Shown one piece after another: positions 3,444 to 44,104 of a stretch of 53,267 nucleotides of DNA. The position numbers and the translations under genes were made by a program. The DNA lies in the NCBI GenBank assembly GCA_964620655.1, contig CAZUJW010000007.1:1-53267 (forward strand), written 5' to 3'. Source of the DNA: an uncultured Christensenella sp. GTDB taxonomy: Bacteria > Bacillota > Clostridia > Christensenellales > DTU072. The first letter of the stretch is position 1. Each line of letters opens with the position of its first letter. Under the pieces are notes generated by a model. That model saw only the letters and a list, made by a program, of their open reading frames with translations. It had not been told where the DNA came from and searched no databases.

Positions 3444-3453
3444 GAGGTGGGAT

Positions 3454-10483: not shown

Positions 10484-12105
10484 AAAAACGAGTAGTGATA
10501 TATGCAAGATTCAGTTCGCACAGTCAGACGGAACAGTCTATCGAAGGACAACTTCGGGAATGCTACGAGTATGCAAAAAGACAAGACCTTCTCGTTGTAG
10601 CCGAATACATAGACCGTGCGCTCACGGGGACTACGGACAAACGACCGGAATTTTTAAGAATGATTGAGGACAGTAAGAAAAAGACTTTCGACTATGTTCT
10701 TGTTTACCAACTTGATCGCTTTGCCCGTAACCGTTACGACAGCGCGAATTACAAAGCAAAGTTAAAGAAAAACGGCGTACGTGTTCTATCTGCAAAGGAA
10801 AACATAACGGAAGACGCAAGCGGAATTTTAATCGAGGGCGTGCTGGAAAGTATGGCGGAATATTATTCCGCCGAACTTTCGCAAAAGGTAAAACGCGGAA
10901 TACGCGAAAGCTACGAAAAAGGTTACTTCATCGGCGGATACGGTTTATTTGGTTATGATATCGTAGATAAAAAATGGGTAATAAACTCTTTTGAAGCAGA
11001 TATTGTCAGAGATATTTTTACAAGATACAAAAATGGCGAAAAGGCGAAAGAAATTATTGCAAGGCTGATCGGACAAGGCATTAAGACGAAAGCCGGTTCG
11101 TCGTTCAATATGAACAGTCTTGCAAGGATAATCCGCAACGAAAAATACATCGGGAAAGTAACTTCGCACGACACGGTTTACACTAACGTCATACCGCCTA
11201 TCGTGGACGAAGAACTTTTTTATGAATGCAACGCCATTATGGACAAGCATAAACATAAACCGCGCGACAGCAAGAGCGAACAGCCATATATTTTAAGCGG
11301 AAAATTGTTTTGCGGATTTTGCGGTAGTCTGATGACCGCCGAAACGGGGACAAGCCATACAGGTAAACTTCATCACTATTACAAGTGTTTCGGAAGAAAA
11401 CGCAACAAACACAGTTGTAAAAAGGCAAATTACAGACAGCAAGACCTTGAAGATCTGGTATTCGGCACGACGGTTAAATACGTTCTGCAACCCGACGTAA
11501 TTCAAACCGTTGCCGAACAGGTCGTTTCAAAATTCAATTCGGAGATAACAAAGACCGCAACGCTTGAAAATCTCGAAAACGAGTTGAAAGCCAAAGAAAA
11601 AGCGATAAATGCACTGCTTGCCGCCATAGAACAAGGCATAGTGACTAAATCCACCAAAGAACGACTGATTTCTCTCGAAACGCAAAAAGAGGAATTAGAG
11701 AGCAAAATTTCTCTTGAAAAGGCTCGGCAGATAAAACCGCTCGAAGTGGACAGAGTAAAAGCGTTTTTAACCTATTTTGCCCGTAAAAAGTATGAAAACG
11801 GGCAAGAAAAAAACGAGTTTTTCAACTCGTTCATAAACCGTGTTATTTTGTATGACGACAAAATTTTAATCTTTTACAACACCGACGATAATCACCCGAC
11901 GGTAATTAAGAGGAAAGACACGGAAGAATTTATTTCGCACTTTAATGACATAGCGAGCAACTGCAAAACCGCAACAAACGACTGTCCGAACACAACGGGA
12001 AACAACAGCCCCATCGTACAAAAGGAAAACTCGCTTGAACCTCAATGGTTCAAACGAGTTTCACTTGGCGGAGCCGAAGGGATTCGAACCCTTGTGCCAA
12101 GTTAA
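10480..12105 (+). CDS. Large serine recombinase (integrase)
   Basis: YARFSS catalytic Ser, SIEGQ, LDRFARN, recombinase domain, LSGKLFCGFCG..YYKC zinc ribbon and coiled coil. The last ~13 codons are read from the tRNA antisense strand. Confidence 0.95.
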   Translation: MKKRVVIYARFSSHSQTEQSIEGQLRECYEYAKRQDLLVVAEYIDRALTGTTDKRPEFLRMIEDSKKKTFDYVLVYQLDRFARNRYDSANYKAKLKKNGVRVLSAKENITEDASGILIEGVLESMAEYYSAELSQKVKRGIRESYEKGYFIGGYGLFGYDIVDKKWVINSFEADIVRDIFTRYKNGEKAKEIIARLIGQGIKTKAGSSFNMNSLARIIRNEKYIGKVTSHDTVYTNVIPPIVDEELFYECNAIMDKHKHKPRDSKSEQPYILSGKLFCGFCGSLMTAETGTSHTGKLHHYYKCFGRKRNKHSCKKANYRQQDLEDLVFGTTVKYVLQPDVIQTVAEQVVSKFNSEITKTATLENLENELKAKEKAINALLAAIEQGIVTKSTKERLISLETQKEELESKISLEKARQIKPLEVDRVKAFLTYFARKKYENGQEKNEFFNSFINRVILYDDKILIFYNTDDNHPTVIKRKDTEEFISHFNDIASNCKTATNDCPNTTGNNSPIVQKENSLEPQWFKRVSLGGAEGIRTLVPS

Positions 12106-12156
12106 TGGCTAACGCATTTCGAGTGCGCCCCGTTATGACCACTTCGATACAGCTCC
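12066..12156 (-). tRNA. tRNA-Ser(CGA)
   Basis: Reverse complement GGAGCTG..GCGCA-CTCGAAA-TGCGT, long variable arm, AAGGG-TTCGAAT-CCCTT, CGGCTCC-GCCA. Confidence 0.97.
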
Positions 12157-12488
12157 ATGTGTTTGAGATTAAGTTGTTTTGTTGTTAGCCATTGCAAGCT
12201 AACGCATTCGCGGGCAATACCGACTTCAGTCGATAGAGGAACAAGGTAAGGAGTTCGCCCGCCAGATTGCTACGCAATTAGCGAGTTACTGCCCCGTTAT
12301 GACCACTTCGATACAGCTCCATGTGTTTGAGATTAAGTTGTTTTGTTGTTAGCCATTGCAAGCTAACGCATTCGCGGGCAATACCGACTTCAGTCGATAG
12401 AGGAACAAGGTAAGGAGTTCGCCCGCCAGATTGCTACGCAATTAGCGAGTTACTGCCCCGTTATGACCACTTCGATACAGCTCCATGT
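12127..12488 (-). repeat. Tandem 164-bp units containing the tRNA-Ser 5' half (2 full units plus a third 34-bp copy)
   Basis: A 34-bp block (tRNA nt 1-30 plus 4 upstream nt) occurs at 12127, 12291 and 12455; the two 130-bp spacers are identical by eye. Confidence 0.95.
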
Positions 12489-12531
12489 ATGTTGTTCGAT
12501 TTAATATATTGCAATCAAATCCACGCCGATA

Positions 12532-12560
12532 AGTATACTACACTTTTTATCTTTTTACAA
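12532..12560 (-). promoter_or_regulatory. sigmaA promoter driving the repeat units and tRNA-Ser
   Basis: Minus strand TTGTAA-17-TATACT. Confidence 0.7.
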
Positions 12561-12619
12561 CTCATTGAAAAAAATTTTTCCATATGTTACAATATTTTGG
12601 TTATCGGAAATAATTTTCG

Positions 12620-13429
12620 ATGAAAAAATTTTTACAAACGGAGAATTTAATGAATTATCAAGCGGTATTTTGGGACTGGAACGGAACTCTTCTGGATGAC
12701 ACTCAGGCTAATATCGACGCGGTGAACGTTTCTTTGGCAAAAAGGAACTTGCCTTTTCTTACAAACGAGTTTCACGCCGAGCATTTTGCTTTCCCGATAC
12801 AGAACTATTACGAAGCGATAGGGTTCGATTTTACGAAAGAGTCGTACGCGGACTTAGCCGACGAATTCATAAACAACTATCTTGCGCAGGAGTACGGTTT
12901 GCGTAAAAACGCCAAAAAAACGCTGGAAAAACTTTTTCTCAATTCCGTAAAGCAATATATTCTCAGCGCGTGCGAGAAAAATATTCTGTTCGAAGCGTTG
13001 GACAAATACGGACTTAATTGTTTCTTTACCGATATTATCGCATTGGACAACGTACACGCGGTAAGCAAAATCGAAGCGGGCAAGGCGTATCTTGCCGAGC
13101 ATCGTCCCGACGGTAAAATTCTTATGGTGGGCGACACGCATCACGACATAGAAGTGGCGACCGCTCTCGGTATGGATTGCGTACTCGTCCGCAGCGGCAA
13201 CCTCTCCGAACGCAGGCTGCAAGAAACCGGCGTAAAAGTCGTCGACGATATTTACGACGTCGTCGATATAGTTTTGGGAACGAAAAAAGGCAAACGCACC
13301 GATTTTTTAACCCCCGAAAAAGCGGAAAGACGGTCGTTCAACCTTGAAGAAACCAACAGAAAATTTTCGGAAAAGTATCACGATTTTTACGACGACGTGA
13401 AAAACACGAATAAAACGGAAGATTGGTGA
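12620..13429 (+). CDS. HAD-family hydrolase (phosphoglycolate phosphatase-like)
   Basis: FWDWNGTLLDD motif I, ILSA motif II, MVGDTHHD motif IV. Confidence 0.9.
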   Translation: MKKFLQTENLMNYQAVFWDWNGTLLDDTQANIDAVNVSLAKRNLPFLTNEFHAEHFAFPIQNYYEAIGFDFTKESYADLADEFINNYLAQEYGLRKNAKKTLEKLFLNSVKQYILSACEKNILFEALDKYGLNCFFTDIIALDNVHAVSKIEAGKAYLAEHRPDGKILMVGDTHHDIEVATALGMDCVLVRSGNLSERRLQETGVKVVDDIYDVVDIVLGTKKGKRTDFLTPEKAERRSFNLEETNRKFSEKYHDFYDDVKNTNKTEDW

Positions 13430-14262: not shown

Positions 14263-14294
14263 TAAGTCTTGAAAACCACGGAAACGAGCTATTA

Positions 14295-14660
14295 AGAACC
14301 GTCGAAAACCGAAAACAACCACTCATCATCCTTGAATATTGCGAACGAACCGGCGGAACGTCTCCACATCATCCTGCCTTGCCGAAGATCCCCGGCGAAG
14401 CGAAATTAAAATGCGGCTTACGCTTATATGTTTCTGTACTCAGCATCACGACTAATGTATGATTAAGGCGGTACAGTTCCAAGCCCCCTTAATGAAACAC
14501 TTTACCGTATGATGTTCCTCCCGTTATCAAAGCTAAACAAAGTTACGCTTTCACGACGAACAAAGTACTTAAATAAACTCTAATAAAAAGTGCTTTATAA
14601 ATGGTTTAAGTTAATAATATAGTCCGGTTCGCTCGTTGAGCACGGTCGGTTTGCCGAGAA
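14295..14660. ncRNA. Candidate structured ncRNA (possibly 6S-like on the minus strand)
   Basis: GC-enriched intergenic region without a credible ORF, with nested complementary segments (CGTCG/CGACG, GGCGGAA/TTCCTCC, ACATCAT/ATGATGT, TGTTTC/GAAACA, CTGTAC/GTACAG). Confidence 0.35.
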
Positions 14661-14662
14661 CC

Positions 14663-15220
14663 CTATTCTTCTTGAAAAACATAGTAACTTATCAAGTTAA
14701 AAACTATCAGTTCCTTTTTATTCTCATCGATGTAAACGTAACTGCTAGTTTTATCCCACGGATCATCGTAAAAATTGTATTGCTTTATTCCGTCAACCGT
14801 TTTTTTGTAAAAAATCAAACCTTCCGTTTGCAGCGTTCCCGAACTAAACAATCCGGTATAAGGAGAAACATCCGCTCCTTCGTATTTATACGTTCCGTCA
14901 CCATAATCGTCAAACTCTATTAAAAAATAAGAACCGTTTCCGGCACCATCTCCTCTATATACGTATTTTTTTACATTTTTTGTTGCACCACTTCCGGTAG
15001 TAGTACACATAACTACAATTAACGGAATTATCAAAATTAAAACAAGTGTGCTAATCGTTATTATTAATCCTTTTTTCTTTTTACTTTCCGTTTCGTTGAC
15101 GTTCGATACTACCGTTTCTTTTGCTTCAGAGGTGTCAGTGTTATCCAGTGCGGTTCCACAATTTGCACAAAACTTATTTGCGTCTTCGTTCATAAATCCA
15201 CATTTCTTACAGCTTTTCAT
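14663..15220 (-). CDS. Zinc-ribbon domain membrane protein
   Basis: CKKCG..FCANCG zinc ribbon, one transmembrane helix, then an extracytoplasmic domain. Confidence 0.8.
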   Translation of the reverse strand: MKSCKKCGFMNEDANKFCANCGTALDNTDTSEAKETVVSNVNETESKKKKGLIITISTLVLILIIPLIVVMCTTTGSGATKNVKKYVYRGDGAGNGSYFLIEFDDYGDGTYKYEGADVSPYTGLFSSGTLQTEGLIFYKKTVDGIKQYNFYDDPWDKTSSYVYIDENKKELIVFNLISYYVFQEE

Positions 15221-15404
15221 AAAAATCTCCTTTTTATTTTACAATATCAAATCATCTGTCCGTTTTATGGGATAAATGGAAGGACTAAAGGCAAATGGTT
15301 TACAAAATTTTCAAATACCGTCTTGTTTTTTTCTATTATCACCTATACTGTAAAATATGGACTTGTTAACAACAAAATTTCGTCCGCATAATAAGGAGTA
15401 ACTA

Positions 15405-16220
15405 ATGATAGAAAAATTTTATACGCATGATTTTGATGAAGAATTTAAAAGTATAGAAATAGAGATGGATTCCGATAAAATCTATTTCTATAAAATACAC
15501 GAGGAATTAATGCCGTTTGTCGGGACGGATTATAAGAATTCGGACATAAAGGTTTTGTTTGTAGGAGAAAGTCATTACGTTGATAATAATTGGCACATGA
15601 ATGAGAAAAATTGGAGAAGTTATGATATAGGGAAATGGGTAAAACCCGATTGGCAAGAGATATTTAAACCTTTTAGTTATGACAAAGAAGGAAATCAATT
15701 AGAAACCAAAGATGAAAATTTTACGAGTTGGTTTAACACAAGAATGCATGCAAATAGAGTCGGAAATCCTACCGCTTCGGAAAAAGCTCTTAAAAATCTA
15801 ATAAAGAGACCTTTGGGGGTTTTAAATCAAACCTTTGGATTTACATTCGGAATAAAAAACATAGCATTTTTTAATTTCTTCCAATATCCAAGTCTCTGTA
15901 ACGGTCAAACCATCCGAAATTCTATCAACAATAAAACGTGGGAAGAATTATTTGCATTTTCATTAGAGCTCGTAGCACGTGCCGTGGAAATCATTAAACC
16001 TGATATTATTATTTTATTAAGCGCCGATCTTTATGACAAGAAAGATGCAATAAAAAGCAGAATATCAGAAATATCCGACCCAGGTGTGGCTATTTGCGCT
16101 ACTTATCATGCGGGAGATAATAGGGTTTGGTATCATAAATATAAAAAACTTAATGATAAAAAGCCCGGCGACTATTTAGCCGACGAACTACAAAAAGCCT
16201 TGCAAGGTTTAAAAAAATAA
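15405..16220 (+). CDS. Hypothetical protein, uracil-DNA-glycosylase-superfamily-like
   Basis: PFVG..Y..KVLFVGESHY, FFNFFQYP, IKPDIIILL, YH motifs; AAGGAG RBS. Confidence 0.6.
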   Translation: MIEKFYTHDFDEEFKSIEIEMDSDKIYFYKIHEELMPFVGTDYKNSDIKVLFVGESHYVDNNWHMNEKNWRSYDIGKWVKPDWQEIFKPFSYDKEGNQLETKDENFTSWFNTRMHANRVGNPTASEKALKNLIKRPLGVLNQTFGFTFGIKNIAFFNFFQYPSLCNGQTIRNSINNKTWEELFAFSLELVARAVEIIKPDIIILLSADLYDKKDAIKSRISEISDPGVAICATYHAGDNRVWYHKYKKLNDKKPGDYLADELQKALQGLKK

Positions 16221-16250
16221 AGTATAAATGAAACGTATTCCTTTGCTAAA

Positions 16251-16315
16251 GTGGAGAGGCAATCTGCTGGGTGGAGAGACAATCTGCTGTGTGTGGAGAG
16301 ACAATCTGCTGTGGA
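16251..16315. repeat. ~20-bp tandem repeat GTGGAGAG(A/G)CAATCTGCT x3
   Basis: Copies at 16251, 16271 and 16293, plus a partial GTGGA at 16311. Confidence 0.9.
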
Positions 16316-16406
16316 CATTCCATCCGATGAACGTTTTATGCTACAATATATGATAGCATAAAAATGGTGGATGGAATGCCACTATAAAAGGTTGATTGGA
16401 TGATAT

Positions 16407-17198
16407 ATGATAGCTGAAAATTATAGACAAAAAGCCGACGAACTCAATACTCAATGGAAACGAGAAAAAGATGAGGAGCCAATATATAAATCGAGTGAAA
16501 ACTCGCAAGCGAACAATTTCATTTTTGACGGAATAGCGAACCCGAACGAATGGTATAAACAAGATATCCGCCCTCTCTTTATCCTAAAAGAAGCTTATAA
16601 TAAATCTACAAGCGATGACGAATGGAATGAAATAGATTTTTTCTTATCAGATACTATCTCACTCCCGGGCAGACCAACAGGAGAAATTGCTTCAAAATAT
16701 AAAACGTGGCGTGTCTTATGCTGTTGGGCATCATATATTTTCAGTCAAAATTATGATACACAAATAACGTGGGAAAACGAACACCTCAGGAAAATCGCTC
16801 TTATAAATATAAAAAAATACGGAGGACAGAATCCGTCGAATGATAAAGATTTAGAAAATCATGCAAAAAAGCACGCAAACTTAATCGTAGACCAAATCAA
16901 ACTTATTAAACCTACGATTATTATATGTGGTTATACCGGTTGGCTAATGGATATCGTTTGGGAAAAGATATTCAAAGAGAAAGTACGCAAAAACAAAAAA
17001 AACGGTAGAGTATACGATATCGTCATCCCCGAACAAGAGGAAATACGGCTGATTGATTTTTGGCATCCTGCCTCGCCAAAATCTCACAGAGATGATTTTA
17101 TAGCCGATATCGATGCAGCAATGGGATGGTTACCTTCCCCTTATATGCACAGTAACGAAGAACCACGAAACGAGTGTGAACTCAACGAATGTAAATAA
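16407..17198 (+). CDS. Hypothetical protein, uracil-DNA-glycosylase-superfamily-like
   Basis: F.FDGI, PLFILKEAY, ALINIKK.GG, QIKLIKP.IIICG, FWHPA motifs. Confidence 0.6.
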   Translation: MIAENYRQKADELNTQWKREKDEEPIYKSSENSQANNFIFDGIANPNEWYKQDIRPLFILKEAYNKSTSDDEWNEIDFFLSDTISLPGRPTGEIASKYKTWRVLCCWASYIFSQNYDTQITWENEHLRKIALINIKKYGGQNPSNDKDLENHAKKHANLIVDQIKLIKPTIIICGYTGWLMDIVWEKIFKEKVRKNKKNGRVYDIVIPEQEEIRLIDFWHPASPKSHRDDFIADIDAAMGWLPSPYMHSNEEPRNECELNECK

Positions 17199-17321
17199 CA
17201 AAATAACAAAATAGAGCTTACTAATCCGAAACATAAAACATATCACTGTTTTATTGCGACTTTTTTGGTATAATAAATATGTTATTATTATAGTAATCTT
17301 AGTTGTTACGGCGGAGGTATA

Positions 17322-18305
17322 ATGGATACTTTTGAACCTAAAAAAGCGGCTTTAATTCGCATTTTACAGATTTTACAACAAAAAACAGATATAGATCATC
17401 CTTTAAAACATTGTGAAATCGTCAACATACTTGACAGAGAATACGGTTTAGCCGTAGAACGAAAAGCGATCGGTCGCAATATATCTTTACTGAACGAAGT
17501 CGGGTATGATATAGTAACCACAAAAAAAGGTTCTTATCTCGCCGAAAGGACTTTTGAAGATGCAGAACTACGACTTCTCATCGATAGTGTTTTTGCAGGA
17601 AAACACATTACCGAAAGTCATTCTCGCGACCTAATAAACAAAATATGCTCGCTGTCAAATAAATACTTTAAACCACGAGTAAAACACATCTGTCGAGTCG
17701 GCGACTGGGATAAAACAGAAAACGCCGATTTATTTTACAATATAGAAATAGTAGACGAAGCAATATCTGAAAGTAAACAGGTTTATTTCAGTTACAACAA
17801 GTACGGCCCGGATAAAAAATTGCGAGAGACATCCAAAGTGACAGCGTCACCATATCAAATGATACTTCACAATCAACGATATTACCTTATGGCTTATAAT
17901 GACTACTACAAGCAAATGAAATATTATCGGCTCGACAGAATTACGAATATCGTAATTACAGACCATGTTTTACGCTCTCTCCGTGAAATTAAAAGTTTTG
18001 AAAATGGTATAGATTATAAACGGTTTTCCGCACAAATGCCCTATATGTTCGACGATGAAATAAAATTTGTTACGTTTATTAGTGAGCCATGGGCAATAGA
18101 CCAAATTGTCGATTGGTTCGGGAAAGATATAGCCATTAACCCTCAGGACGAAAAATATTTGGTCAAAGTAAAAACGAGTTTGCGTGCCATGGAGTTTTGG
18201 GCAATGCAATATCTCAATGCCGTCGAAATACTTACGCCTATTTCCTTGCGCGATAAATTGCGAGAAAATCTGATTAACGGACTGGAAAAATACACACGGA
18301 ACTAA
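17322..18305 (+). CDS. WYL-domain transcriptional regulator (wHTH-WYL-WCX)
   Basis: N-terminal wHTH (ILQIL..ERKAIGRNISLL), SPYQM...RYYL, YRLDRI; GGAGG RBS. Confidence 0.92.
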   Translation: MDTFEPKKAALIRILQILQQKTDIDHPLKHCEIVNILDREYGLAVERKAIGRNISLLNEVGYDIVTTKKGSYLAERTFEDAELRLLIDSVFAGKHITESHSRDLINKICSLSNKYFKPRVKHICRVGDWDKTENADLFYNIEIVDEAISESKQVYFSYNKYGPDKKLRETSKVTASPYQMILHNQRYYLMAYNDYYKQMKYYRLDRITNIVITDHVLRSLREIKSFENGIDYKRFSAQMPYMFDDEIKFVTFISEPWAIDQIVDWFGKDIAINPQDEKYLVKVKTSLRAMEFWAMQYLNAVEILTPISLRDKLRENLINGLEKYTRN

Positions 18306-18322
18306 TCAAAAAACAACTACGG

Positions 18323-18955
18323 TTATTGGTTAAATTTATCTATAACGTATAAGTACTTATCCCAAAAATTCGCTTGAAAATAACCTATAGTATATACTTT
18401 CTTCGCAAACATACACGCAACGTTTTTCACTGTGTATATCGGTGCAGTTAAGACAATTTTTCCGTAAAGTACTTCTTCGTGTCTTTCTGTGACCCCTATG
18501 TCTTTACATAAATTGTGCAAGCTGTCTTTACCTACGTCTATACTATTATCGTCTCGAAGCTCTGCAAGAATGGTTTTTATCTTTTTGTGAGACGCATTAC
18601 CGATTTTTTCAAAGATTTCAAATACGAGTTTGTCTACATCATCTCTGAAAATTAGACGTTTAGGATCCTCTTTTTCATGTTTCAAGAACAGAAACATCGC
18701 AAATGTGTATTGCTTTTGCACAAAAAAACCTCTCGCCACATATTCGCTCAATTTCTCAAAATTCTCCGGCTTTATCGAACCGGACTGATACTCCGGAATA
18801 AACAGCGGAGACGAGTATCTCCCTTCTGAAAAGAGTTTCCAAGTTAATTTATCTTGGTAATTGTCGACGTAAATTCCAGTCTTAGCTTCGCAAAACCGAA
18901 TAAGTTCATTATAGTAATTAACTGTGTCATTAAAAATTATTTCGTCTTTATTCAC
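18323..18955 (-). CDS. Hypothetical protein
   Basis: 210-aa ORF with GGAG RBS, co-oriented with 18971-19819. Confidence 0.7.
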   Translation of the reverse strand: MNKDEIIFNDTVNYYNELIRFCEAKTGIYVDNYQDKLTWKLFSEGRYSSPLFIPEYQSGSIKPENFEKLSEYVARGFFVQKQYTFAMFLFLKHEKEDPKRLIFRDDVDKLVFEIFEKIGNASHKKIKTILAELRDDNSIDVGKDSLHNLCKDIGVTERHEEVLYGKIVLTAPIYTVKNVACMFAKKVYTIGYFQANFWDKYLYVIDKFNQ

Positions 18956-18970
18956 TTCTTTTTCTCCTTA

Positions 18971-19819
18971 TCAGCGTATTTCCTTATCGCATAACTTGCT
19001 TAGCAAACTTATTCGCTTATCTTCGAATATAAACACCTGTCTGCCTGTTTTTCGCATAGTCGTTATCATATCCCCAATTATTTGTTCAGATTTATTTCCG
19101 AGTTGATTTATGATAAACATCGGCGGACCTTCTGCCATCCCAAAATTATTCATGAGCATATCCGTCAGTTGATTCGCCGTAAGGAAATCAATAATTTCAA
19201 ATTGCTCTTCTTTATCCGGTGCCAATGCGTCTTCATCATATATCCCGAAAGTCATATCGCCCCACGGATCTTTGACAAATTCTACGCCGTAATTATCTAT
19301 TATGATCTTTGGCAGATCAATTGCGGAGTGTTTTACAATATTTTGCGTATTTTCGTCACCTATCGCCATCCAATAATCTAAAACTTCTTGCGTATAGTAC
19401 TTGTTCTTTGCTCCGCCGAAACAACTTACCATTCTATAACAACCGCAAAACAAATATTCTGGCAAAAAGAAAAACTTTTTCGTTTGATTGCTATTCACAG
19501 ATTCTCTTTTTTTCATATCGGTAAAGATTATTTCTTTTTTATTTTGTTCGTTAATACTATTTCCTTTATTCGGCTTTTCCCTTATAGATATACCATAAAT
19601 TTTATTCTCATGTTCGCACTCTAAATACAATTCCTCATTTGCATCAGGATTTATATCGTACGCTGTGATTATGGCAAGCCAGTCTTCACAATACAAACAA
19701 AATATATTTTTTATTGCATTAAAAAAACTTTCCATATATTTAGAGTCCAAAACAATTATTTTATCTTTTTTCTCAAATGTCAAATCAACGTTTTTTGTCC
19801 TAAAATTTTTGATATTCAT
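18971..19819 (-). CDS. Hypothetical protein, possibly a degenerate ABC/RecF-like ATPase
   Basis: GGAG RBS; IKNFR N-terminus and ..GRQVFIF C-terminus, but no intact Walker A motif. Confidence 0.65.
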   Translation of the reverse strand: MNIKNFRTKNVDLTFEKKDKIIVLDSKYMESFFNAIKNIFCLYCEDWLAIITAYDINPDANEELYLECEHENKIYGISIREKPNKGNSINEQNKKEIIFTDMKKRESVNSNQTKKFFFLPEYLFCGCYRMVSCFGGAKNKYYTQEVLDYWMAIGDENTQNIVKHSAIDLPKIIIDNYGVEFVKDPWGDMTFGIYDEDALAPDKEEQFEIIDFLTANQLTDMLMNNFGMAEGPPMFIINQLGNKSEQIIGDMITTMRKTGRQVFIFEDKRISLLSKLCDKEIR

Positions 19820-19912
19820 TTTCTCTCCTGTCCGTTTATTTTAATAATCGTTTTTAATTGTCCCGATTTTGGTACAAAATAAATGTTTTTATTATTATCA
19901 GGAGAACTGATT

Positions 19913-20293
19913 ATGCAAGAGTACAGAGTTGGAATTTTTTGGTATATTAACGACATCTTATTATCTCTCACACAACATTCTGGAAAAAGCGAGATATCTG
20001 ATTTGACCGGTAAAATAGATAGTGATTTTTCACACCGGATATGTTGGAATATATATTTCGGCGACATCTATCCCGACGCCGATTACGCAACTTTTCCGCG
20101 CGGAAGGACACTATACGATTTAAGAAAAAATCAATATATTATTTATGCTGACTGTTGTATTCCCGACAGCGTAATAGCCAAATATGCGCAAAAGAACGAC
20201 TTGTCTCCTTTTGTTGTAGCTCGCGATGTACACTATCGATGCGATAAGTGCTTAGGATTATCAACCCAAACAAGTGGGGCTGTCAAGAAATGA
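19913..20293 (+). CDS. Hypothetical protein (GIFWY..FPRGR..DVHYRC..C)
   Basis: AGGAG RBS before ATG 19913; conserved-looking His/Cys motifs. Confidence 0.7.
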   Translation: MQEYRVGIFWYINDILLSLTQHSGKSEISDLTGKIDSDFSHRICWNIYFGDIYPDADYATFPRGRTLYDLRKNQYIIYADCCIPDSVIAKYAQKNDLSPFVVARDVHYRCDKCLGLSTQTSGAVKK

Positions 20294-20312
20294 ACCTCTT
20301 AACAGCCCTTTT
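20277..20312. terminator. Bidirectional terminator
   Basis: GGGCTGTCAAGA / TCTTAACAGCCC stem between convergent genes. Confidence 0.6.
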
Positions 20313-20348
20313 GGGATATCCTTAAAATCTTATTTCAGATACCGAAAA

Positions 20349-22819: not shown

Positions 22820-22867
22820 GTTTTTGAGTGTTCCGAAAATAGAGTTTTTGAGTGTTCCGAAAATAGA
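22820..22867. repeat. Exact 24-bp tandem duplication upstream of the GPH transporter
   Basis: GTTTTTGAGTGTTCCGAAAATAGA x2. Confidence 0.9.
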
Positions 22868-22936
22868 GTTTGGTATTGAATAACGATTTTTTATGTGCTA
22901 TAATTTAATCGTTTAATAATAAAGGCAGGAGCAATT

Positions 22937-34715: not shown

Positions 34716-34734
34716 GGAGAAAAACGATAAGGAA

Positions 34735-38194: not shown

Positions 38195-41152
38195 ATGTCA
38201 GAAAACAACAACAAAAACATCGAAGAACAAGACGTAGTTGTCGAAGAACAAGATAAGGTTGAAGAACCTGTCGAAGCAAAAGACGACGCAGTCGAAGAAG
38301 TTTCTGCAGAGAAAGACGGCGAAACGGCAGCCGCAAAAGACGAGAAGAAGAAAAACGTCTTTTTGGTATGGCTTGCGGCGGCAGGCGCTTGGTTTGCAAA
38401 ACTCGGGCAGATAATTGCCGGATTTTTCAAAAAACTCGGGCAGAAAATCGCAGAGCTGTGGAACAAACTTTCCGCCAAATTAGGCAAAAGGAATCTAATC
38501 ATTATATGCTCGGCGATAGCTGCCGTGCTTATAGCGGTGATAGTGACCGTTTCGGTGGTTTGTTCCAACAATAATAAAGACAAGGATAACGGCGAGCAGG
38601 TCACGACGACTTACTCCGAAGGTCTTGCCTTCAACGAGACGGCAGACGGCACCGGATACGAAATTTCGGGTATGGGTACCTGCACCGACAGGGATCTCGT
38701 TTTGCCCGTCGAATATAACGGCAAGAGCGTGACCGCGATCGGCAATAGGTCGTTTATGTTTAACGAAAACGTTACTTCCGTTACGATTTCGAAGTCGGTG
38801 ACGCGCATCGGCGATTATACCTTCTGCAACTGCAAAAAGTTAAAAACAATTATATACAACGGCACCAAAGCAGAATGGGCCGCAATCACGAAAGGAAATA
38901 ATTGGGACTACGGTCTGACCGGCGCGGTCGTTAAATGCACCGACGAAACGACGTCCTACGTTTCTACCGCCACTGCTTCGCAGGGCTTGACTTTCGAACT
39001 CAACGCCGATAGCACCGGATATATCGTTACGGGTGAAGGCACCTGCGAAGACGACGTTATTCTCATTCCCGCAGAATATGAAGGCAAACCCGTAGTGGAA
39101 ATTAAAGCCAACGCTTTTTGCATAAGAAACGGTGAAACCGACTATTCCGCAAGCGATTTGGTGGCGATTGCTATCCCCGATTCCGTTACTAAAATCGGAG
39201 AACAAGCGTTTGCTCTTTGTTCTTCGTTAGAAAAGGTATCGTTGTCGCAGTCGCTTGTTTCTATAGGCGAAACCGCATTTTATGGAACAACGTCGCTTAA
39301 GCAGATATCTTTCCCCTCTTCGCTCAGAACGATAGGAATGTTTGCGTTTGCCCATTCCGGACTTACGGAAGTCGTAATCCCCGAAGGAGTAACTACTTTA
39401 GGAAACGGAGCTTTCGCATGGAACGAGAGTCTTACGTCGGCTACGCTTCCCACGACAATAACGGATTTTGACGATGTAAGAGAGGACGATGACGATGCCG
39501 ACATGTTCGGAACGTTCTACGGTTGCTCTGCTTTATCGGAAGTTATTTTACCCGATGGTATGACAAAACTCGGCAAGCAGATGTTTGCTCAGTGCGAAAG
39601 CCTTACCGAAATCACCATTCCGTCGGGCGTTACAGAGATTCCCGACTATTTGTTTACGATGGCATCAGTCGATTATAGGGTTAAGTTCAAATCGTTGACC
39701 CTCCCCTCTACGTTGACGAAAATAGGTCAATTCGCATTCCGTAATTGCGATATCGACGACATCTATTTCGGCGGTACCGTCGAACAATGGAAAGCCGTTT
39801 TAACAGAGGCTAAACTAATAGGCTTAATAAACGTATTCGATTCTAACGCTTGCTACGTTGCGCATTGTGCCGACGGCAATTATATCGACACGGACACCTA
39901 TGTGAATGGTATCCATAATGCTTGCACCAGTGACGGCAAAGGAGAAGGCACTTTCATTTACAACGGAATAAATTCTGAGGGTGAGGGTTGCGGAAAGATA
40001 GTCATTCCGTCAATCGGTTATCTCGCCGGCAGCAGCATGAGTTGCCGTTTGGCGAGCACTTGCGAGGGTACGTTTATAGGTAACAAAACGCTTACCGTTG
40101 TCGCTATCCCGAGTGCGATTAAAGAACTCGGCAAATCCGCATTTGCATGTTGCGAGAATTTGTCGCGCATTCTGTATGACGGAACAACCGAACAATGGAA
40201 CAATCTTACAAAGGGTGACAACTGGGATTACGGTACGGGAGAATACACCGTATATTGTACCGACGGCACGGTAGAAAAAGTCGCAACCTCCGTTAAGTAT
40301 TCGCAAGAGCAAGATCTGATAATCGAGAATTCGACCGTTAAGGGAATCAGAACCTCCTGCACCGACAAGGTTATATATATCCCTAACTACATCAGTCAAA
40401 TTGCTGCGGAAGCGTTTCAGGACGACGGCAAAATTCTCGGCGTTATTATCCCCGACTCCGTAGAGGGAATGGGCAACAAAGTTTTCAAAAACTGTTCCAA
40501 TCTTAAATACGTCGAACTCGGCAAAGAAGTAACGACAATAGACGACTACGCATTTTACGGAACAAGGTCTCTTAAACATATCTCTCTCCCCTCTTCGCTT
40601 ACAAAAATAGGGAAATTAGCATTCAGTAATTCCGGACTTACGGAAGTCGTGATACCCGAGAACGTAGAGACCTTAGGATATGCAACTTTCTCATATTGCA
40701 AGAATCTTAAATCGGTTACGATCCAATCCACGTCAATAGAGGATTTCGGCGACGGCGAAGACGCCGACATAGTCGGGACTTTCTATGGTTGCGAGGCATT
40801 GGAGGAAGTTGTTTTACCCGAAGGTATGACAAAACTCGGCAAACAGATGTTCGGAGGGTGTACAAATCTTACCAAAGTCACCATTCCGTCGAGCATAAAC
40901 GTTATTGCTGAAACGGCGTTTACGTACTGTACAGGACTCAGCGAGGTTACGTTCTCCGATTCGTTGATACAAATCGGCATATATGCGTTCAATAATTGCA
41001 GAAATCTCACCGATATTAATTTTAACGGCACGATGGAACAATGGAAAACTGTCATAAGTAACAGCAACAACATGTGGAATTACAGTGCGGGAAACTACAC
41101 CGTACACTGCAGTGACGGGACGTTGGACAAAGACGGAAGAGTTATTGAGTGA
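38195..41152 (+). CDS. BspA/TpLRR-type leucine-rich-repeat surface protein with N-terminal TM anchor
   Basis: Repeated IP.SVT.IG..AF..C..L units, an acidic N-terminal tail, one TM helix and an internal duplication. Confidence 0.92.
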   Translation: MSENNNKNIEEQDVVVEEQDKVEEPVEAKDDAVEEVSAEKDGETAAAKDEKKKNVFLVWLAAAGAWFAKLGQIIAGFFKKLGQKIAELWNKLSAKLGKRNLIIICSAIAAVLIAVIVTVSVVCSNNNKDKDNGEQVTTTYSEGLAFNETADGTGYEISGMGTCTDRDLVLPVEYNGKSVTAIGNRSFMFNENVTSVTISKSVTRIGDYTFCNCKKLKTIIYNGTKAEWAAITKGNNWDYGLTGAVVKCTDETTSYVSTATASQGLTFELNADSTGYIVTGEGTCEDDVILIPAEYEGKPVVEIKANAFCIRNGETDYSASDLVAIAIPDSVTKIGEQAFALCSSLEKVSLSQSLVSIGETAFYGTTSLKQISFPSSLRTIGMFAFAHSGLTEVVIPEGVTTLGNGAFAWNESLTSATLPTTITDFDDVREDDDDADMFGTFYGCSALSEVILPDGMTKLGKQMFAQCESLTEITIPSGVTEIPDYLFTMASVDYRVKFKSLTLPSTLTKIGQFAFRNCDIDDIYFGGTVEQWKAVLTEAKLIGLINVFDSNACYVAHCADGNYIDTDTYVNGIHNACTSDGKGEGTFIYNGINSEGEGCGKIVIPSIGYLAGSSMSCRLASTCEGTFIGNKTLTVVAIPSAIKELGKSAFACCENLSRILYDGTTEQWNNLTKGDNWDYGTGEYTVYCTDGTVEKVATSVKYSQEQDLIIENSTVKGIRTSCTDKVIYIPNYISQIAAEAFQDDGKILGVIIPDSVEGMGNKVFKNCSNLKYVELGKEVTTIDDYAFYGTRSLKHISLPSSLTKIGKLAFSNSGLTEVVIPENVETLGYATFSYCKNLKSVTIQSTSIEDFGDGEDADIVGTFYGCEALEEVVLPEGMTKLGKQMFGGCTNLTKVTIPSSINVIAETAFTYCTGLSEVTFSDSLIQIGIYAFNNCRNLTDINFNGTMEQWKTVISNSNNMWNYSAGNYTVHCSDGTLDKDGRVIE

Positions 41153-41172
41153 TTTAGAAAATATTAAAAACG

Positions 41173-41214
41173 AAAAGGTTGTTAAGAGCGAAAGCTTCTT
41201 AACAACCTTTTTTT
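41173..41214 (+). terminator. Rho-independent terminator
   Basis: AAAAGGTTGTTAAGA / TCTTAACAACCTTTT plus T tract. Confidence 0.85.
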
Positions 41215-41406
41215 ATGCTCGGCTTGACGGGCGTGAAAAGTGAAGAGTGAAACTGCGGTACAAAGCCGTACGTACGTACAGCGGTCACGACGAGAAACCG
41301 CAAGCAGTCCACAGCGTGGAGCTAATTCCCAAACAAGTCCGGCAATTAGCTCCGCTTTTGAGGATTGATATATAAAACGTTGATGCAAACGAGTTTAGAA
41401 ACGAGT

Positions 41407-42096
41407 TTAGTCGTAACCGTCGACGGTATGTTTTACGTCCTGCATTTGAGTGTCCAAAGTTTCGCAAATTGAAGCGCATTTCAGGAGTTTTTCCGAAATA
41501 TCCGCTTGCGTTTTTTCGTCGAGATTTTTTTTGTAGCGGAGCTTGTGTTCAAGGTTAGCCCAGGTTTCCATAGCTATCGTGCGGAGCTGTACTTCGACTC
41601 TCATATTTATCTTTTCGTCGCGTAAAAAGATGGGAGTTTCTATAATAAGGTGCAAGCTGCGGTAGCCGTTCTTTTTAGGGTGTTTTATGTAGTCGCGGGT
41701 TTCTATAAGCGTCACGTCGTCCTGATTTATAAGACAGTCGGCAAGCATATAGATATCTTCCACGAACGAACATATTACTCTTACTCCCGCAACGTCGTTA
41801 AGGCGTTGCACGGAAGAAAAGGTCAGGGGAAGATTTTTTCTTCTCAGCTTTTCAAGGATACTTTCCGGCGACTTTATTCTGCTTTTTATACTCTCTATCG
41901 GGTTGCGTTCGTTCTGCACCGAGAAGCGTTCGTCCAGCACTCTGAACTTCGTTTCCACTTCGAGAGCGGCGCACTTGTAGCACGACATAGTTTCTTTCGC
42001 CTGATCGAGTAAGGCTCTCACGTCGGCTACCGTCACGTCCGTAGGCAGGGAGTCGGCAATTGATTTCATTATCTCTTTATAACTTAGTTCGTTCAT
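41407..42096 (-). CDS. Small alarmone synthetase (RelP/RelQ-like GTP pyrophosphokinase)
   Basis: RIKSPESI.EK, DVAGVRVIC, DYI..PK.NGYRSLH, EVQLRT.AM..WA.LEH...YK. Confidence 0.93.
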   Translation of the reverse strand: MNELSYKEIMKSIADSLPTDVTVADVRALLDQAKETMSCYKCAALEVETKFRVLDERFSVQNERNPIESIKSRIKSPESILEKLRRKNLPLTFSSVQRLNDVAGVRVICSFVEDIYMLADCLINQDDVTLIETRDYIKHPKKNGYRSLHLIIETPIFLRDEKINMRVEVQLRTIAMETWANLEHKLRYKKNLDEKTQADISEKLLKCASICETLDTQMQDVKHTVDGYD

Positions 42097-42203
42097 AACG
42101 ATTATAATTATGCAAAAAACGGCTTAAACGACGCTTAACAAAAATCAGATTTTTCGATAAAATCAAAAGTTGATTAGTCTTAATCAACAAAACGACAAAA
42201 AAC

Positions 42204-42221
42204 TGCGCGCCATAAGCGAGC
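42204..42221 (-). repeat. Displaced end of the tRNA-Arg-associated unit (tRNA 3'-end mimic)
   Basis: TGCGCGCCATAAGCGAGC; GCGCGCCATAAG is identical to tRNA-Arg 44030-44041 and to 43832-43843. Confidence 0.8.
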
Positions 42222-42293
42222 AAAAAAGTGCATCAATTGATTTGAAGTTTAATAGTTTGTTGAAATGTTGTATTTCGCAAGATTTGATTTATA

Positions 42294-43490
42294 TTAATTT
42301 TGCGAAACGAGCCAGCGTGCGATGTCGATGATTCGAACTCCTTCGATTTGGCTTTCAGGATGCTTCGTTCGTGCGATAATGATTTTGGGATAGGCATCTT
42401 TGATTGATAGCAATGGGGCTAATTCTCGTTTTTGAGTTTCGGGACGACTAATATCGTCGCAAACTTGAATATAGGTTTTGAAGCCGTCTTTTATAGCAAC
42501 GAAATCAACCTCTTTTTCGCCTAATTGCCCCACGTAAACCTCATAACCGCGACGCAACAATTCGATTGCTACTATATTTTCATATAAATGACCGTAATCG
42601 GCGTTTTTTGTGCCGATAATTGCATAGCGAAAAGAGAGATCTGCAAGATAGTATTTTTTATCCGATTCCAAATATCGCTTTCCTTTTACGTCGTAACGCT
42701 TAAAAGGGTAGAATAGGAAGCTGCGACAGAGATAATCTATATATGCGCCGCAAGTTTTATCATTGGTTTTGTAGGTGTTTGACGTGAGCGCATTTGCAAT
42801 ATTGCGTATGGACGTTTTGTTGCCCACGTTGTCCATAAGATAATCCGCAATCATATTAAGCAAGTCTTCGTTTTCGATTTTGAATTTTTTAACAATATCT
42901 TTTGTAATAGTGGTGCGGACTATGTTTGCAAGATATTTTCTTGCGTCGCTTTGATTGCTGTATAAATAAGATCCTGCCATACCACCGACAGATACGTAAT
43001 TGTCAAAAGCCTCGTCAATATCGTTTTGCGGATAGTAGGAAAGATATTCCGTAAAAGAAAACGGGAACATGCTGATTTCAAAGACTCGACCGCCGAAGAG
43101 TGTTGCCAAATCGCTAGACAGCAAGAATGCGTTTGAACCAGTGAGGAATATATTGAAACGTTCTTCTTCATACAGGCTATTGATAACGGTTTCAAATCCC
43201 GTGCAAAGTTGTATTTCGTCCACAAAGACAAAGTTTTCTTTGTCCGCAGAATAGTGTTTGACTATATAATCGTATAATGCATCACCACTTTTTAATGATT
43301 CAAATTCTTTCAAATTTAGTTTGATGCGGGTTACGTTATTATTTTCGGATTGCTTTTTGACGTAATCAATGAAGGCATCCATCAATTTTGATTTGCCCGA
43401 GCGACGAATGCCCGTGATAACTTTGATGTCTGGAGTGTTCATGACGTCGATTAGTTGTTGAAGATAGGTCGGTCTTTCGATAAGTTTCAT
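42294..43490 (-). CDS. AAA_14 ATPase with DUF4143 C-terminus
   Basis: GIRRSGKS Walker A, FVDEIQ Walker B, LTGSNA, KYYLAD, EVDFVA...YIQV. Confidence 0.92.
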   Translation of the reverse strand: MKLIERPTYLQQLIDVMNTPDIKVITGIRRSGKSKLMDAFIDYVKKQSENNNVTRIKLNLKEFESLKSGDALYDYIVKHYSADKENFVFVDEIQLCTGFETVINSLYEEERFNIFLTGSNAFLLSSDLATLFGGRVFEISMFPFSFTEYLSYYPQNDIDEAFDNYVSVGGMAGSYLYSNQSDARKYLANIVRTTITKDIVKKFKIENEDLLNMIADYLMDNVGNKTSIRNIANALTSNTYKTNDKTCGAYIDYLCRSFLFYPFKRYDVKGKRYLESDKKYYLADLSFRYAIIGTKNADYGHLYENIVAIELLRRGYEVYVGQLGEKEVDFVAIKDGFKTYIQVCDDISRPETQKRELAPLLSIKDAYPKIIIARTKHPESQIEGVRIIDIARWLVSQN

Positions 43491-43509
43491 GTGCTATCAC
43501 CTCATAATC

Positions 43510-43538
43510 AATATATCTCATTTCGCAAAAATTGTCAA
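43510..43538 (-). promoter_or_regulatory. sigmaA promoter of the ATPase cassette
   Basis: Minus strand TTGACA-17-TATATT. Confidence 0.75.
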
Positions 43539-43636
43539 ATGCAAAAATTGCGAAATAAAACATAATGTACGATATTTTGAATAATTTTGAAAGAAAAATA
43601 ACCTAACTCGGAAAATCAAGTCAGGTTATTCGTGGT

Positions 43637-44018
43637 GAGCCATTCGTATGTACCGTATACTTGTAGTAGTTTTTTAGAGTTTCGTAGCAATACCGTTATT
43701 TGAGCGTGTCGTTACTCATCAGATTTGCCCAAAGGGCAAATTTGCGAATCCCGCGGGATTCGCAGGGCTCGCTTATGGTGAAACAAAAAAGCAACCGATA
43801 TTTCGGTTGCAGTTAAATAAACGGAAAAAGTGCGCGCCATAAGAGAGCCATTCGTATGTACCGTATACTTGTAGTAGTTTTTTAGAGTTTCATAGCAATA
43901 CCGTTATTTGAGTTTATCGTTACTCATCAGATTTACCCAAGGGGCAAATTTGCGAATCCCACGGAATTCGCAAGGCTCACTTATGGTGAAACAAAAAAGC
44001 AACCGATATTTCGGTTGC
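43637..44018 (-). repeat. Two ~174-bp near-identical structured units (period 208 bp) downstream of tRNA-Arg
   Basis: Copies at 43637-43810 and 43845-44018, with 13-bp terminal inverted repeats and internal hairpins. Confidence 0.93.
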
Positions 44019-44028
44019 TTTTTTGTTT
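43989..44028. terminator. 18-bp perfect bidirectional terminator directly after tRNA-Arg
   Basis: AAACAAAAAAGCAACCGA-TATT-TCGGTTGCTTTTTTGTTT; partially duplicated near 43781-43810. Confidence 0.9.
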
Positions 44029-44104
44029 GGCGCGCCATAAGGAGCTCGAATCCCTAACCTTTGGTTCCGTAGACCAACGCTCTATCCAATTGAGCTAATG
44101 GCGC
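44028..44104 (-). tRNA. tRNA-Arg(ACG)
   Basis: Reverse complement GCGCCAT..TTGGT-CTACGGA-ACCAA..AGGGATTCGAGCTCCT-ATGGCGC-GCCA. Confidence 0.97.

Follow-up and report, generated by a model that had tools for sequence, protein, structure and literature searches.

tRNA genes as integration sites

Site-specific integration leaves a textbook signature, in which a tRNA gene is accompanied by a displaced fragment of one of its ends in direct orientation (PMC4383910). Among the tDNA islands of the Islander catalogue both 3'-fragment and rarer 5'-fragment configurations are known, the latter in 159 of 3919 catalogued islands, and tandem arrays are known as well (Hudson, Lau and Williams, 2015; PMC4383910). 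A related arrangement is formed by serine-recombinase elements at ssrA in Dehalococcoides (McMurdie et al., 2011; PMC3146451). Here a serine recombinase of ~540 aa lies beside the att site, and the crossover in the T-loop yields direct repeats (DRs) of ~20 bp of the 3' end of the RNA gene. Many DR-bounded islands stand in tandem, some without an integration module (CIME-like), and their DRs differ from the gene in a common way. In streptococci, CIMEs and ICE-IME accretion also produce att-flanked elements that lack recombination and transfer genes and lie in tandem with integrase-bearing elements (PMC5704250). What defines a CIME is that it moves with a cognate ICE, as demonstrated or inferred, and the known ones are kilobase-sized (PMC5704250).

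The window, meaning the whole 53,267-nt stretch of DNA from an uncultured Christensenella sp. that was analysed here, contains only two tRNA genes, tRNA-Ser(CGA) and tRNA-Arg(ACG) (ARAGORN, Rfam). It was compared with loci (numbered L0xx) of uncultured Christensenellales MAGs. An initial annotation had described arrays built from fragments of both genes, next to mobile cargo, and had proposed a general tRNA-fragment repeat system. Its observations hold: both genes bear short tandem repeats edged with copies of their own ends (TRF arrays and repeated fragments), the two arrays share a layout despite their different units (repeat finding, BLAST of the tRNA), and each adjoins mobile cargo, a large serine recombinase (LSR) defence island with Type III RM and RhuM at Ser and a PDC-S01 ATPase cassette at Arg. 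The system itself does not follow, and on the best reading the window displays the tRNA-island signature, already known, in miniature, and not a new dedicated system.

The serine tRNA locus

The intact tRNA-Ser(CGA) gene lies on the reverse strand at 12066-12156 (ARAGORN; Rfam tRNA, 50.8 bits), and the Ser array occupies its leader (12127-12488, reverse strand; TRF period 164 bp, 2.2 copies, score 724). Each 164-bp unit ends in tRNA-Ser nucleotides 1-30. A 34-nt block, consisting of ACAT and these 30 positions, occurs three times (12127-12160, 12291-12324 and 12455-12488; repeat finding, BLAST of the tRNA), the first 30 nt of the gene itself (12127-12156) being copy 1, and the blocks enclose two bodies of 130 nt (12161-12290 and 12325-12454). 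Each body includes a second tRNA-derived piece (12184-12208 and 12348-12372, reverse strand; repeat finding), in which the 11-mer GCTAACGCATT matches tRNA-Ser positions 39-49 (12108-12118) and which also has a variable-arm-like hairpin (GTTAGC/GCTAAC). This piece is the part of the unit kept in the relatives L010 and L056, and is 82% identical to L056 compared with ~53% for the remaining body. The two units are fully identical in the window assembly, but not in ERZ27279216, an independent assembly of the same strain, where unit 2 shows five differences and the otherwise identical contigs L005 and L003 break at that unit.

The likely tRNA-Ser promoter (TTGTAA-17-TATACT, 12532-12560, reverse strand; promoter scan) is located upstream of the entire array, at a fixed place beside a HAD gene in all relatives, and its sequence is identical in L008, L010, L056, L057 and L062. 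Because of this position the units would be transcribed as part of the pre-tRNA leader. An intrinsic terminator (12026-12062, reverse strand; terminator scan) follows directly after the tRNA 3' end, within the non-conserved tail of the recombinase ORF.

The defence island adjoins the 3' end of tRNA-Ser (553-12086, forward strand; Pfam, PADLOC, L005 gene calls), so that its LSR is on the opposite side of the gene from the units. It encodes HTH, RhuM (PDC-S05), a Type III MTase and REase, a cII-like protein, a RES-domain protein and the LSR (541 aa; 10480-12105, forward strand). The latter has all three domains (Pfam Resolvase, Recombinase and Zn_ribbon_recom) and sits at the island end with its 3' end converging on tRNA-Ser; its conserved part stops near 11908, and the ORF tail runs over the terminator and 40 nt of the tRNA gene. 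The right end of the island probably falls in the tRNA-Ser T-loop, and a remnant in L055 is homologous to window positions 11863-12086 only. As for an LSR element, the recombinase stands at the island end that faces an RNA gene, and the island is missing from L010, which has the same tRNA-Ser and one unit. The left end was not found within the window and may lie beyond it; a search of the window with the final 21 nt of tRNA-Ser, allowing up to three mismatches, gave no second hit that could mark the far boundary.

The arginine tRNA locus

The intact tRNA-Arg(ACG) gene (44028-44104, reverse strand; ARAGORN; Rfam, 61.4 bits) has a promoter of perfect consensus (44134-44162, reverse strand; promoter scan) and an array at 43637-44018 (TRF period 208 bp, 1.8 copies, 94% identity). 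The 12-mer GCGCGCCATAAG of the tRNA 3' end is found again at 43832, where the match reaches 16-17 nt if one inserted base is allowed, and this 12-17-nt copy, DR1 (GCGCGCCATAAGaGAGC, 43832-43848, reverse strand), separates the two units. Proximal unit 2 (43849-44027, reverse strand; repeat finding, RNAalifold, covariance model 87.8 bits) comprises a terminator (43989-44028), an inverted fragment copy (~43974-43986), the palindromes P3 (43950-43973) and P1 (43928-43952), and a body. Distal unit 1 (43637-43831, reverse strand; TRF, repeats, terminator scan, RNAalifold, covariance model 89.4 bits) repeats the terminator (43791-43810), P3 (43742-43764) and P1 (43720-43744), and its far end retains just GGCTC of the fragment. 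The unit ends carry 13-nt inverted repeats (CCATAAGnGAGCC). The initial description of the units as hairpin-rich is therefore apt for Arg, with its terminator, two palindromes and closing inverted repeat, whereas the Ser unit forms only modest hairpins.

A third fragment copy, DR0 (GCGCGCCATAAGcGAGC, 42205-42221, reverse strand), was overlooked by the initial annotation. It means that the ATPase cassette (42222-43636, reverse strand; Pfam, promoter/terminator scan, BLAST) is itself bracketed by fragments, since it lies exactly between the GGCTC of unit 1 and DR0 (GCTCGCTTATGG). Outside tRNA-Arg, GCGCCATAAGnGAGC occurs exactly twice, against 0.01 occurrences expected, and DR0 and DR1 differ from the tRNA alike, by one extra base and then an A after GCGCGC. 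DR0 corresponds to a degenerate distal fragment in L031; beyond DR0 come a terminator-like hairpin (42169-42188) and a RelA_SpoT gene. The cassette consists of an AAA_14/DUF4143 ATPase gene (42294-43490, reverse strand; Pfam; PADLOC PDC-S01, 1.4e-144), a promoter (43510-43538) and a terminator hairpin (43596-43631; promoter/terminator scan). Only 42263-43588 is common to copies elsewhere (BLAST to L011-L030), and the ATPase gene is also present, at 92% nucleotide identity, in an unrelated island. The best reading is that the cassette is a defence candidate that accreted later at the Arg junction.

Variation among relatives

Both arrays are polymorphic. Ser sites without any unit, with a leader of 33-45 nt, are found in L007-L009 and L059-L062; L010 and L056 have one diverged unit with a decayed fragment, and the window has two. 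Between genomes that share 91% identity in the flanks, the distal Ser body cannot be aligned (~53%), which fits replacement by different elements and not slow drift. The Arg unit is absent from L041, and is present once in L042, twice in the window and L031, at least three times in L040 and four times in L043; across the four other assemblies that have it, the count ranges from 1 to 4. L031 and L040 encode an identical esterase. Units a and c of L043 are 100% identical, and units are closer to each other within a genome than to the same-position units of other genomes. Beside the L043 array an element with LSR, RhuM and HTH (42-44% identity to those of the window; 42% across 475 aa for the LSR) splits tRNA-Arg, with its junction ~6-8 nt from the tRNA 3' end.

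The initial annotation would have counted its two cases as coincidental if other loci and relatives lacked such units. The layout does recur in the lineage, at Arg, at Val and on the 3' side of Ser. Among the relatives, tRNA-Val has a 24-nt 3' fragment 186 nt downstream, with a 162-nt spacer, adjoining an LSR remnant. In L061 a 121-nt repeat lies 3' of tRNA-Ser. It takes in the final 21 nt of the gene and otherwise consists for the most part of native host DNA from downstream of tRNA-Ser. The inserts at different tRNAs bear no sequence relation to each other.

Comparison with described elements

The two loci share with Islander islands an intact tRNA gene and additional end fragments in the same orientation (two more of 30 nt at Ser, two more of 12-17 nt at Arg) on the correct side, upstream of the 5' end at Ser and downstream of the 3' end at Arg. 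The crossover sublocations, anticodon stem-loop for Ser and T-loop/T-stem for Arg, are also alike, and empty sites exist in relatives for both genes. By contrast, the window segments are gene-less stretches of 130-190 bp, apart from one 1.6-kb interval with the AAA_14/DUF4143 ATPase only. With intervals of 130, 130, ~180 and ~1610 bp, units without an ORF and no integrase between the fragments, they would fail the cataloguing filters of at least 2 kb and an integrase. The units here are themselves amplified up to four times. The traits listed above for Dehalococcoides, from the recombinase beside the att site to the shared changes in the DRs, have their likeness here, but there the target is a tmRNA, the islands are kilobases long with cargo genes, and the mapped LSR junctions of the present loci do not match the unit boundaries.

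Like CIMEs, the units are devoid of genes for recombination, conjugation or mobilisation. Each unit has fragment repeats on both sides, all recombinase junctions that were mapped (in L043, L055 and L021) fall elsewhere in the tRNA, and no cognate element with the att arms of the units came to light. The units resemble MITEs and similar small non-autonomous repeats in being small, non-coding and hairpin-rich, with terminal inverted repeats in the Arg unit; however, the present units are tandem instead of dispersed and have no short target-site duplication. In ~290 kb of related loci, searches by BLAST and with the covariance model detected units only at their own tRNA locus, the model of the Arg hairpins matching at tRNA-Arg loci only. 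In Rfam 15 only the tRNAs pass, the other matches being terminator-driven and far below gathering scores.

Origin of the repeats

The arrays may well be independent footprints of one ordinary process, in which integrative elements left gene-less remnants that were then amplified, and not the product of one system; we hold this account with about even confidence. In this Christensenellales-like lineage, tRNA genes would be hot spots of site-specific integration, and each incoming element would displace one tRNA end and bring a copy of that end with it, giving the layout tRNA end, insert, tRNA end. Nearly all of the insert would then be lost, leaving a segment about the size of two attP arms. 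Copy numbers from 1 to 4 or more would be set by slippage or by homologous unequal crossover, first between flanking fragments and later between whole units, and more DNA would accrete at the same junctions, as the ATPase cassette may have done at the distal Arg fragment. The Ser locus would belong to the rarer 5'-fragment type, its crossover having taken place in the anticodon stem-loop and its units lying between promoter and tRNA. The Arg locus would belong to the common 3'-fragment type, its crossover having taken place in the T-loop or close to it.

Several observations argue for remnants. The tRNAs are intact, and their fragments have the orientation of the gene and lie on the correct side of it. 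There is one fragment more than there are inserts (three against two at Ser; tRNA, DR1 and DR0 against two segments at Arg), which points to insertion with a duplicated target and not to plain duplication. Insertion polymorphism in relatives, the change common to DR0 and DR1, which parallels the ssrA direct repeats of serine-recombinase islands (PMC3146451), and the placement of the cassette exactly at a fragment junction, with its ATPase gene also in an unrelated island, agree with this. The LSR island at tRNA-Ser, the LSR element in tRNA-Arg of L043 and the LSR remnant at tRNA-Val suggest hot spots, and the identical L043 units and within-genome similarity suggest unequal crossover. Against remnants, the intervals that separate the tRNAs from their fragments all lack an integrase, and no full-size element with ends homologous to the Ser or Arg unit was found. 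The mapped LSR junctions (near the 3' end of tRNA-Arg; T-loop/3' end of tRNA-Ser) are off the unit boundaries (positions 30/31 at Ser; T-stem/T-loop at Arg), so these LSRs are not assigned as makers of the units, and attribution to any integrase would be tentative. The L061 block could also result from plain duplication, and the Ser unit, whose two tRNA-derived pieces are in the right order, could alternatively derive from a tandem copy of the tRNA that decayed.

A local tandem duplication of the minisatellite kind, in which replication slippage or unequal crossover copied intergenic DNA beside the tRNA, with a breakpoint that chanced to fall in the tRNA and with no mobile element ever involved, is unlikely. 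It would account for copy number that varies within a species, for the identity of L043 units a and c, for the L061 repeat of native DNA plus 21 nt of tRNA, and for the lack of an integrase in every unit. The extra fragment and the absence of the bodies from empty-site relatives, however, imply that insertion preceded any duplication; the layout is seen in four tRNA contexts, its breakpoints fall at the places in a tRNA gene that integrases canonically use (anticodon stem-loop, T-loop), and neither the shared change of DR0 and DR1 nor a foreign cassette exactly at a fragment junction fits duplication. That the repeats were made or inflated by a short-read metagenome assembler is very improbable. 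The Ser units are identical in the window but differ at five sites, and are broken, in the other assembly of the strain, and scaffold gaps fall at the arrays in L040, L059 and L060; yet L005 and L003 together demand two distinguishable Ser units, and Arg arrays with diverged units are present in five independent assemblies (ENA, NCBI, JGI, Logan).

Two further explanations give the units a function. They might be structured RNAs, a leader at tRNA-Ser and a trailer at tRNA-Arg, whose arrays tune dosage and whose tRNA-like ends serve processing or stability, which we consider rather doubtful. Three compensatory double substitutions keep P1 and P3 in the distant relative L042, which points to selection on structure where a pure scar predicts none, and changes on one side of P1/P3 alone allow G-U pairing on the tRNA strand. 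Every Arg unit has a terminator of its own after it, and the Ser units lie within the pre-tRNA leader. The five SNPs between Ser unit variants fall in predicted loops or give G-U pairs, and the Ser unit folds a little better than shuffled sequence on the tRNA strand but not on the opposite one (z = -2.1 and 0.3). Still, this strand test is weak, the covariation comes from a single distant sequence, no Rfam family matches even at E = 10, no unit has a promoter-like site, and each Arg body stands behind a strong terminator. Very close relatives share only ~53% identity in the distal Ser body, and units are entirely missing in some relatives. A dedicated, lineage-wide system of tRNA-anchored mini-elements, offering extra att sites as decoys that shield the tRNA or as landing pads for mobile DNA, is improbable. 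In related genomes the layout is repeated at Arg, at Val and on either side of Ser, and the ATPase cassette and an LSR-remnant island sit at fragment junctions and not in the tRNA. Units at different tRNAs nevertheless share neither sequence nor structure, no dedicated machinery or conserved associated gene accompanies them, empty sites are common, and residual att sites are already known to accrete DNA passively (PMC3146451). The landing pad retains one circumstantial point, the cassette at the distal Arg junction. Nothing supports the decoy. The one LSR element seen to enter the Arg locus, that of L043, cut the genuine tRNA-Arg despite four neighbouring fragment-bearing units.

Implications

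A bolder and rather unlikely possibility is that the units are active non-autonomous mini-elements, consisting of attP only, that are excised and re-integrated in trans by recombinases of the lineage, amplify at tRNA ends and act as platforms for accretion. If so, they would be the smallest form of an integrative element, and the Arg hairpin pair would be a recognition structure for the recombinase or an accessory factor. Defence cassettes, such as the PDC-S01 ATPase and the LSR islands, would then be captured and exchanged at these units.

Repeat Arrays at the Two tRNA Genes

Two tRNA genes lie in the window, tRNA-Ser(CGA) (12066-12156, minus strand) and tRNA-Arg(ACG) (44028-44104, minus strand), and the tRNA-fragment repeat arrays described at both in the initial annotation are real, being recovered by Tandem Repeats Finder and as fragment copies, with the corrections added here. 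The Ser array (12127-12488; 164-bp unit, 2.2 copies in Tandem Repeats Finder) consists of a 34-nt block (four upstream bases plus tRNA positions 1-30) present three times with two 130-nt bodies between, and every body contains an 11-mer equal to tRNA positions 39-49 beside a variable-arm-like hairpin. The likely promoter of tRNA-Ser, at 12532-12560, is on the far side of the array from the tRNA, and the units are therefore leader sequence. Ser unit 2 differs at five positions in L005 and L003, contigs of the same strain from another assembly (ENA ERZ27279216) that are identical to the window elsewhere. That assembly breaks at this point, and on the sequences compared the 100% identity of the Ser units is assembly-dependent. 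The start of L003 (1-39, against window 12080-12118 and 12362-12372) fuses the 3' part of tRNA-Ser to Ser unit 2 through the 11-mer that the two have in common. The fusion lacks the anticodon, would be a deletion product, has a short dead-end tip of 28-39 nt as its only support and probably reflects a chimeric read or a rare recombinant; on the same two grounds, the tRNA-Ser intron that this contig start had brought to mind is ruled out.

The Arg array (43637-44018; 208-bp unit, 1.8 copies, 94% identity in Tandem Repeats Finder) follows the tRNA on its 3' side. Between its two units lies GCGCGCCATAAGaGAGC (DR1, 43832-43848), which reproduces the final 12 nt of the tRNA, or 16-17 nt if one inserted base is allowed. 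A third copy of the fragment, DR0, is found at 42205-42221, and the pattern GCGCCATAAGnGAGC occurs twice outside the tRNA, against 0.01 occurrences expected. A separate terminator follows each of the two Arg units.

Other tandem repeats are located at 16251-16314 (22 nt, three copies), 22820-22871 (24 nt, 2.2 copies) and 50976-51456 (90/180 nt), the last inside a gene, called in the related contig L001, for a product of more than 1400 aa. The stretch 14300-20300, with low GC (0.32-0.38), small genes without Pfam matches and a WYL-domain gene, may be another island.

Units in Related Genomes

An exact-match scan with a Ser 30-mer returned four loci from uncultured Christensenellales or Clostridia MAGs, with one copy apiece. 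The Ser unit is absent from the related loci L007-L009, where 33-45 nt separate the tRNA from the promoter beside it, while L010 (MAG labelled RUG11213) and L056 carry one Ser-type unit in the same architecture with a decayed 5' fragment. The HAD neighbour in L056 is 94% identical in protein; between window and L056 identity is 91% in the flanks of the Ser locus, 82% in the 57 nt of the unit nearest the tRNA, and about 53% in the distal body, which is unalignable. L010 has the unit and lacks the serine recombinase island found beside it in the window, and the Ser unit is therefore independent of that island.

Arg units vary in number: two in L031 (esterase neighbour 88% identical in protein), which has no ATPase, at least three in L040, which encodes an identical esterase protein, four in L043, two of them mutually identical, one diverged unit in L042 and none in L041. 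Arg units are more alike within a genome than between genomes at equivalent positions, which indicates repeated unequal exchange. The palindromes P1 and P3 of the Arg unit are kept in L042 through three compensatory double substitutions, and this conservation suggests selection on a hairpin, as RNA or as recombination structure, with a weak strand test and a silent Rfam. A presence/absence difference also occurs nearby, as a 985-aa BspA-type leucine-rich-repeat protein (38195-41152, between the PEPCK and RelA_SpoT genes) is missing at the syntenic L031.

The ATPase Cassette

The interval bounded by the distal Arg unit and the third fragment holds a promoter and an AAA_14/DUF4143 ATPase gene, a candidate defence gene (PADLOC PDC-S01). 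This cassette (42222-43636) exactly fills the space from the end of unit 1 (GGCTC) to DR0 (GCTCGCTTATGG), and with the third fragment at 42205-42221 it is therefore itself fragment-bracketed. The counterpart of DR0 in L031 is a degenerate distal fragment, and the cassette is read as a later accretion at the Arg locus. Elsewhere, only the gene and promoter are common with the window (42263-43588, 92% nucleotide identity); the cassette is thus a gene that moves horizontally and has come to rest at this junction. About 100 variants of the ATPase with 96-98% protein identity are listed from public assemblies. In the loci L011-L030 (92% nucleotide identity), the gene and promoter stand in a quite different island, beside a 701-aa RVT_1 reverse transcriptase, kinase or Sel1 genes and tRNA-Val, and PDC-S01 has the look of a single-gene defence candidate that spreads horizontally. 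Downstream of the Arg array, a small RelA_SpoT-domain gene (41407-42096) matches PADLOC PDC-S33 (1.3e-25); in L031 and L043, the Arg units are immediately upstream of such a gene on the same strand.

Serine Recombinases at tRNA Ends

Large serine recombinase (LSR) elements that target tRNA genes were reportedly not known in a 2014 survey. The island to the left of tRNA-Ser includes an HTH gene, RhuM (PADLOC PDC-S05), a Type III restriction-modification pair, a cII-like gene, a RES-domain protein and a 541-aa LSR, whose non-conserved tail crosses the tRNA terminator and 40 nt of tRNA-Ser. At 11908-12105, this reading frame runs about 65 codons beyond its conserved end, through the terminator and into the tRNA, and the LSR frame of L043 likewise extends into the Arg array. 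The 3' terminus of the LSR gene, or the sequence just past it, may contain the att site. In IMG/VR relatives of the window LSR, the 3' end of tRNA-Ser is found where the recombinase gene ends, and the remnant in the IMG/VR contig L055 matches no more of the window than 11863-12086, so that the homology ends in the T-loop.

In L043, tRNA-Arg(ACG) is interrupted about 6-8 nt from its 3' end at the palindrome GGCGCGCC, right beside the four-unit array. The element that splits it (3291-6162 of contig Ga0256404_1001151) carries an LSR (42% identical to that of the window), RhuM (44%) and an HTH gene; in this 6.7-kb locus, which holds one element end only, ARAGORN calls no tRNA. In L011-L030, where the ATPase is 97% identical, a 24-nt copy of the tRNA-Val 3' end, reaching as far as the T-loop, stands 186 nt downstream of that tRNA; after it come a terminator and a truncated LSR C-terminus (35% identity, E 2e-16). 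L059-L061, from a related species, have a 121-nt direct repeat with 204-nt spacing 3' of tRNA-Ser(CGA), and it ends at the same T-loop position. The layout of tRNA end, short insert and tRNA end therefore recurs in the lineage. The repeat of L061 (585-909; also L059 and L060) comprises native downstream DNA and the last 21 nt of tRNA-Ser around a GC-rich insert of about 85 nt, and these scaffolds have N-gaps there. The sequence CTCGCTCCGCTnnTnnA abuts the T-loop junction beside LSR remnants at the tRNA-Val locus of L021 (8697-8713) and in L055 (521-537), and may be a conserved P arm of the attP of this LSR clade.

Origin of the Units

Site-specific integration into tRNA genes is recognised by a regenerated gene accompanied by a displaced, directly oriented piece of its end, which is its defining signature; most catalogued islands have 3' fragments and a documented minority 5' fragments (159/3919), and tandem arrays are already known (PMC4383910). 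The serine recombinase islands at the Dehalococcoides tmRNA gene have 20-bp direct repeats with a T-loop crossover, form tandem arrays including integrase-less, CIME-like members, and their repeats have in common a difference from the tmRNA gene itself (PMC3146451); DR0 and DR1 also share a difference from their gene. Because of this signature and these parallels, both arrays are interpreted as integrative-element remnants. They would be miniature, gene-less leftovers whose units are bounded by att-like tRNA fragments and whose copy number may have been raised by unequal crossover.

Other origins were considered. The Ser unit contains two pieces of tRNA origin, correctly ordered, and may instead descend from an upstream tRNA copy that has decayed. 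The neighbouring LSR is unsupported as maker of the units, since related LSR junctions fall at the T-loop or in the last 6-10 nt of the tRNA rather than at unit boundaries, and L010 has a unit without an LSR. No integrase among the mapped junctions has its crossover at unit boundaries, and no full-size element with ends matching the units was found in the related loci or the viral-contig scans. A tyrosine recombinase near the single unit of L042 is Xer-like in appearance, has no bounding tRNA fragment and is uninformative. The Arg unit is not part of the ATPase cassette, as copies elsewhere with 96-98% amino acid identity share 42263-43588 without unit or fragments. Nor are the units dispersed repeats: one metagenome scan gave no matches, a second only another tRNA-Arg array, and viral-contig scans a single chance 19-mer within a long ORF. 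Rfam matched the tRNAs only, whether gathering scores or E values up to 10 were applied; a hammerhead reading of CTGATGAG in the Arg unit fails by eye on the missing GAAA core, again with no Rfam match, and on inspection small ORFs in the units are unconserved between copies.

The remnant interpretation bears on the earlier proposal of a lineage-wide system of tRNA-fragment arrays providing att decoys or landing pads. Its shared logic holds insofar as the layout recurs and is tied to mobile DNA, but known integration, accretion and unequal crossover suffice to account for it. There is no evidence for a dedicated system, as inserts at different tRNAs are unrelated (pairwise BLAST matches of at most 11 nt) and a covariance model of the Arg hairpin module matches tRNA-Arg loci only, or for a decoy role of the units.

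Implications

Island catalogues filter out candidates below 2 kb or without an integrase (PMC4383910), and gene-less mini-islands are therefore invisible in them. Such mini-islands occur at several tRNAs of an uncultured gut and rumen Clostridia lineage, with copy-number variation within a species, and flag sites where candidate defence genes pile up. The loci described here also document LSR elements with tRNA genes as targets. If the units can be mobilised in trans, they would be the smallest substrate on which tRNA-targeting integrases act and could help in engineering insertion sites; as inert scars, they would simply be useful markers of past integration.
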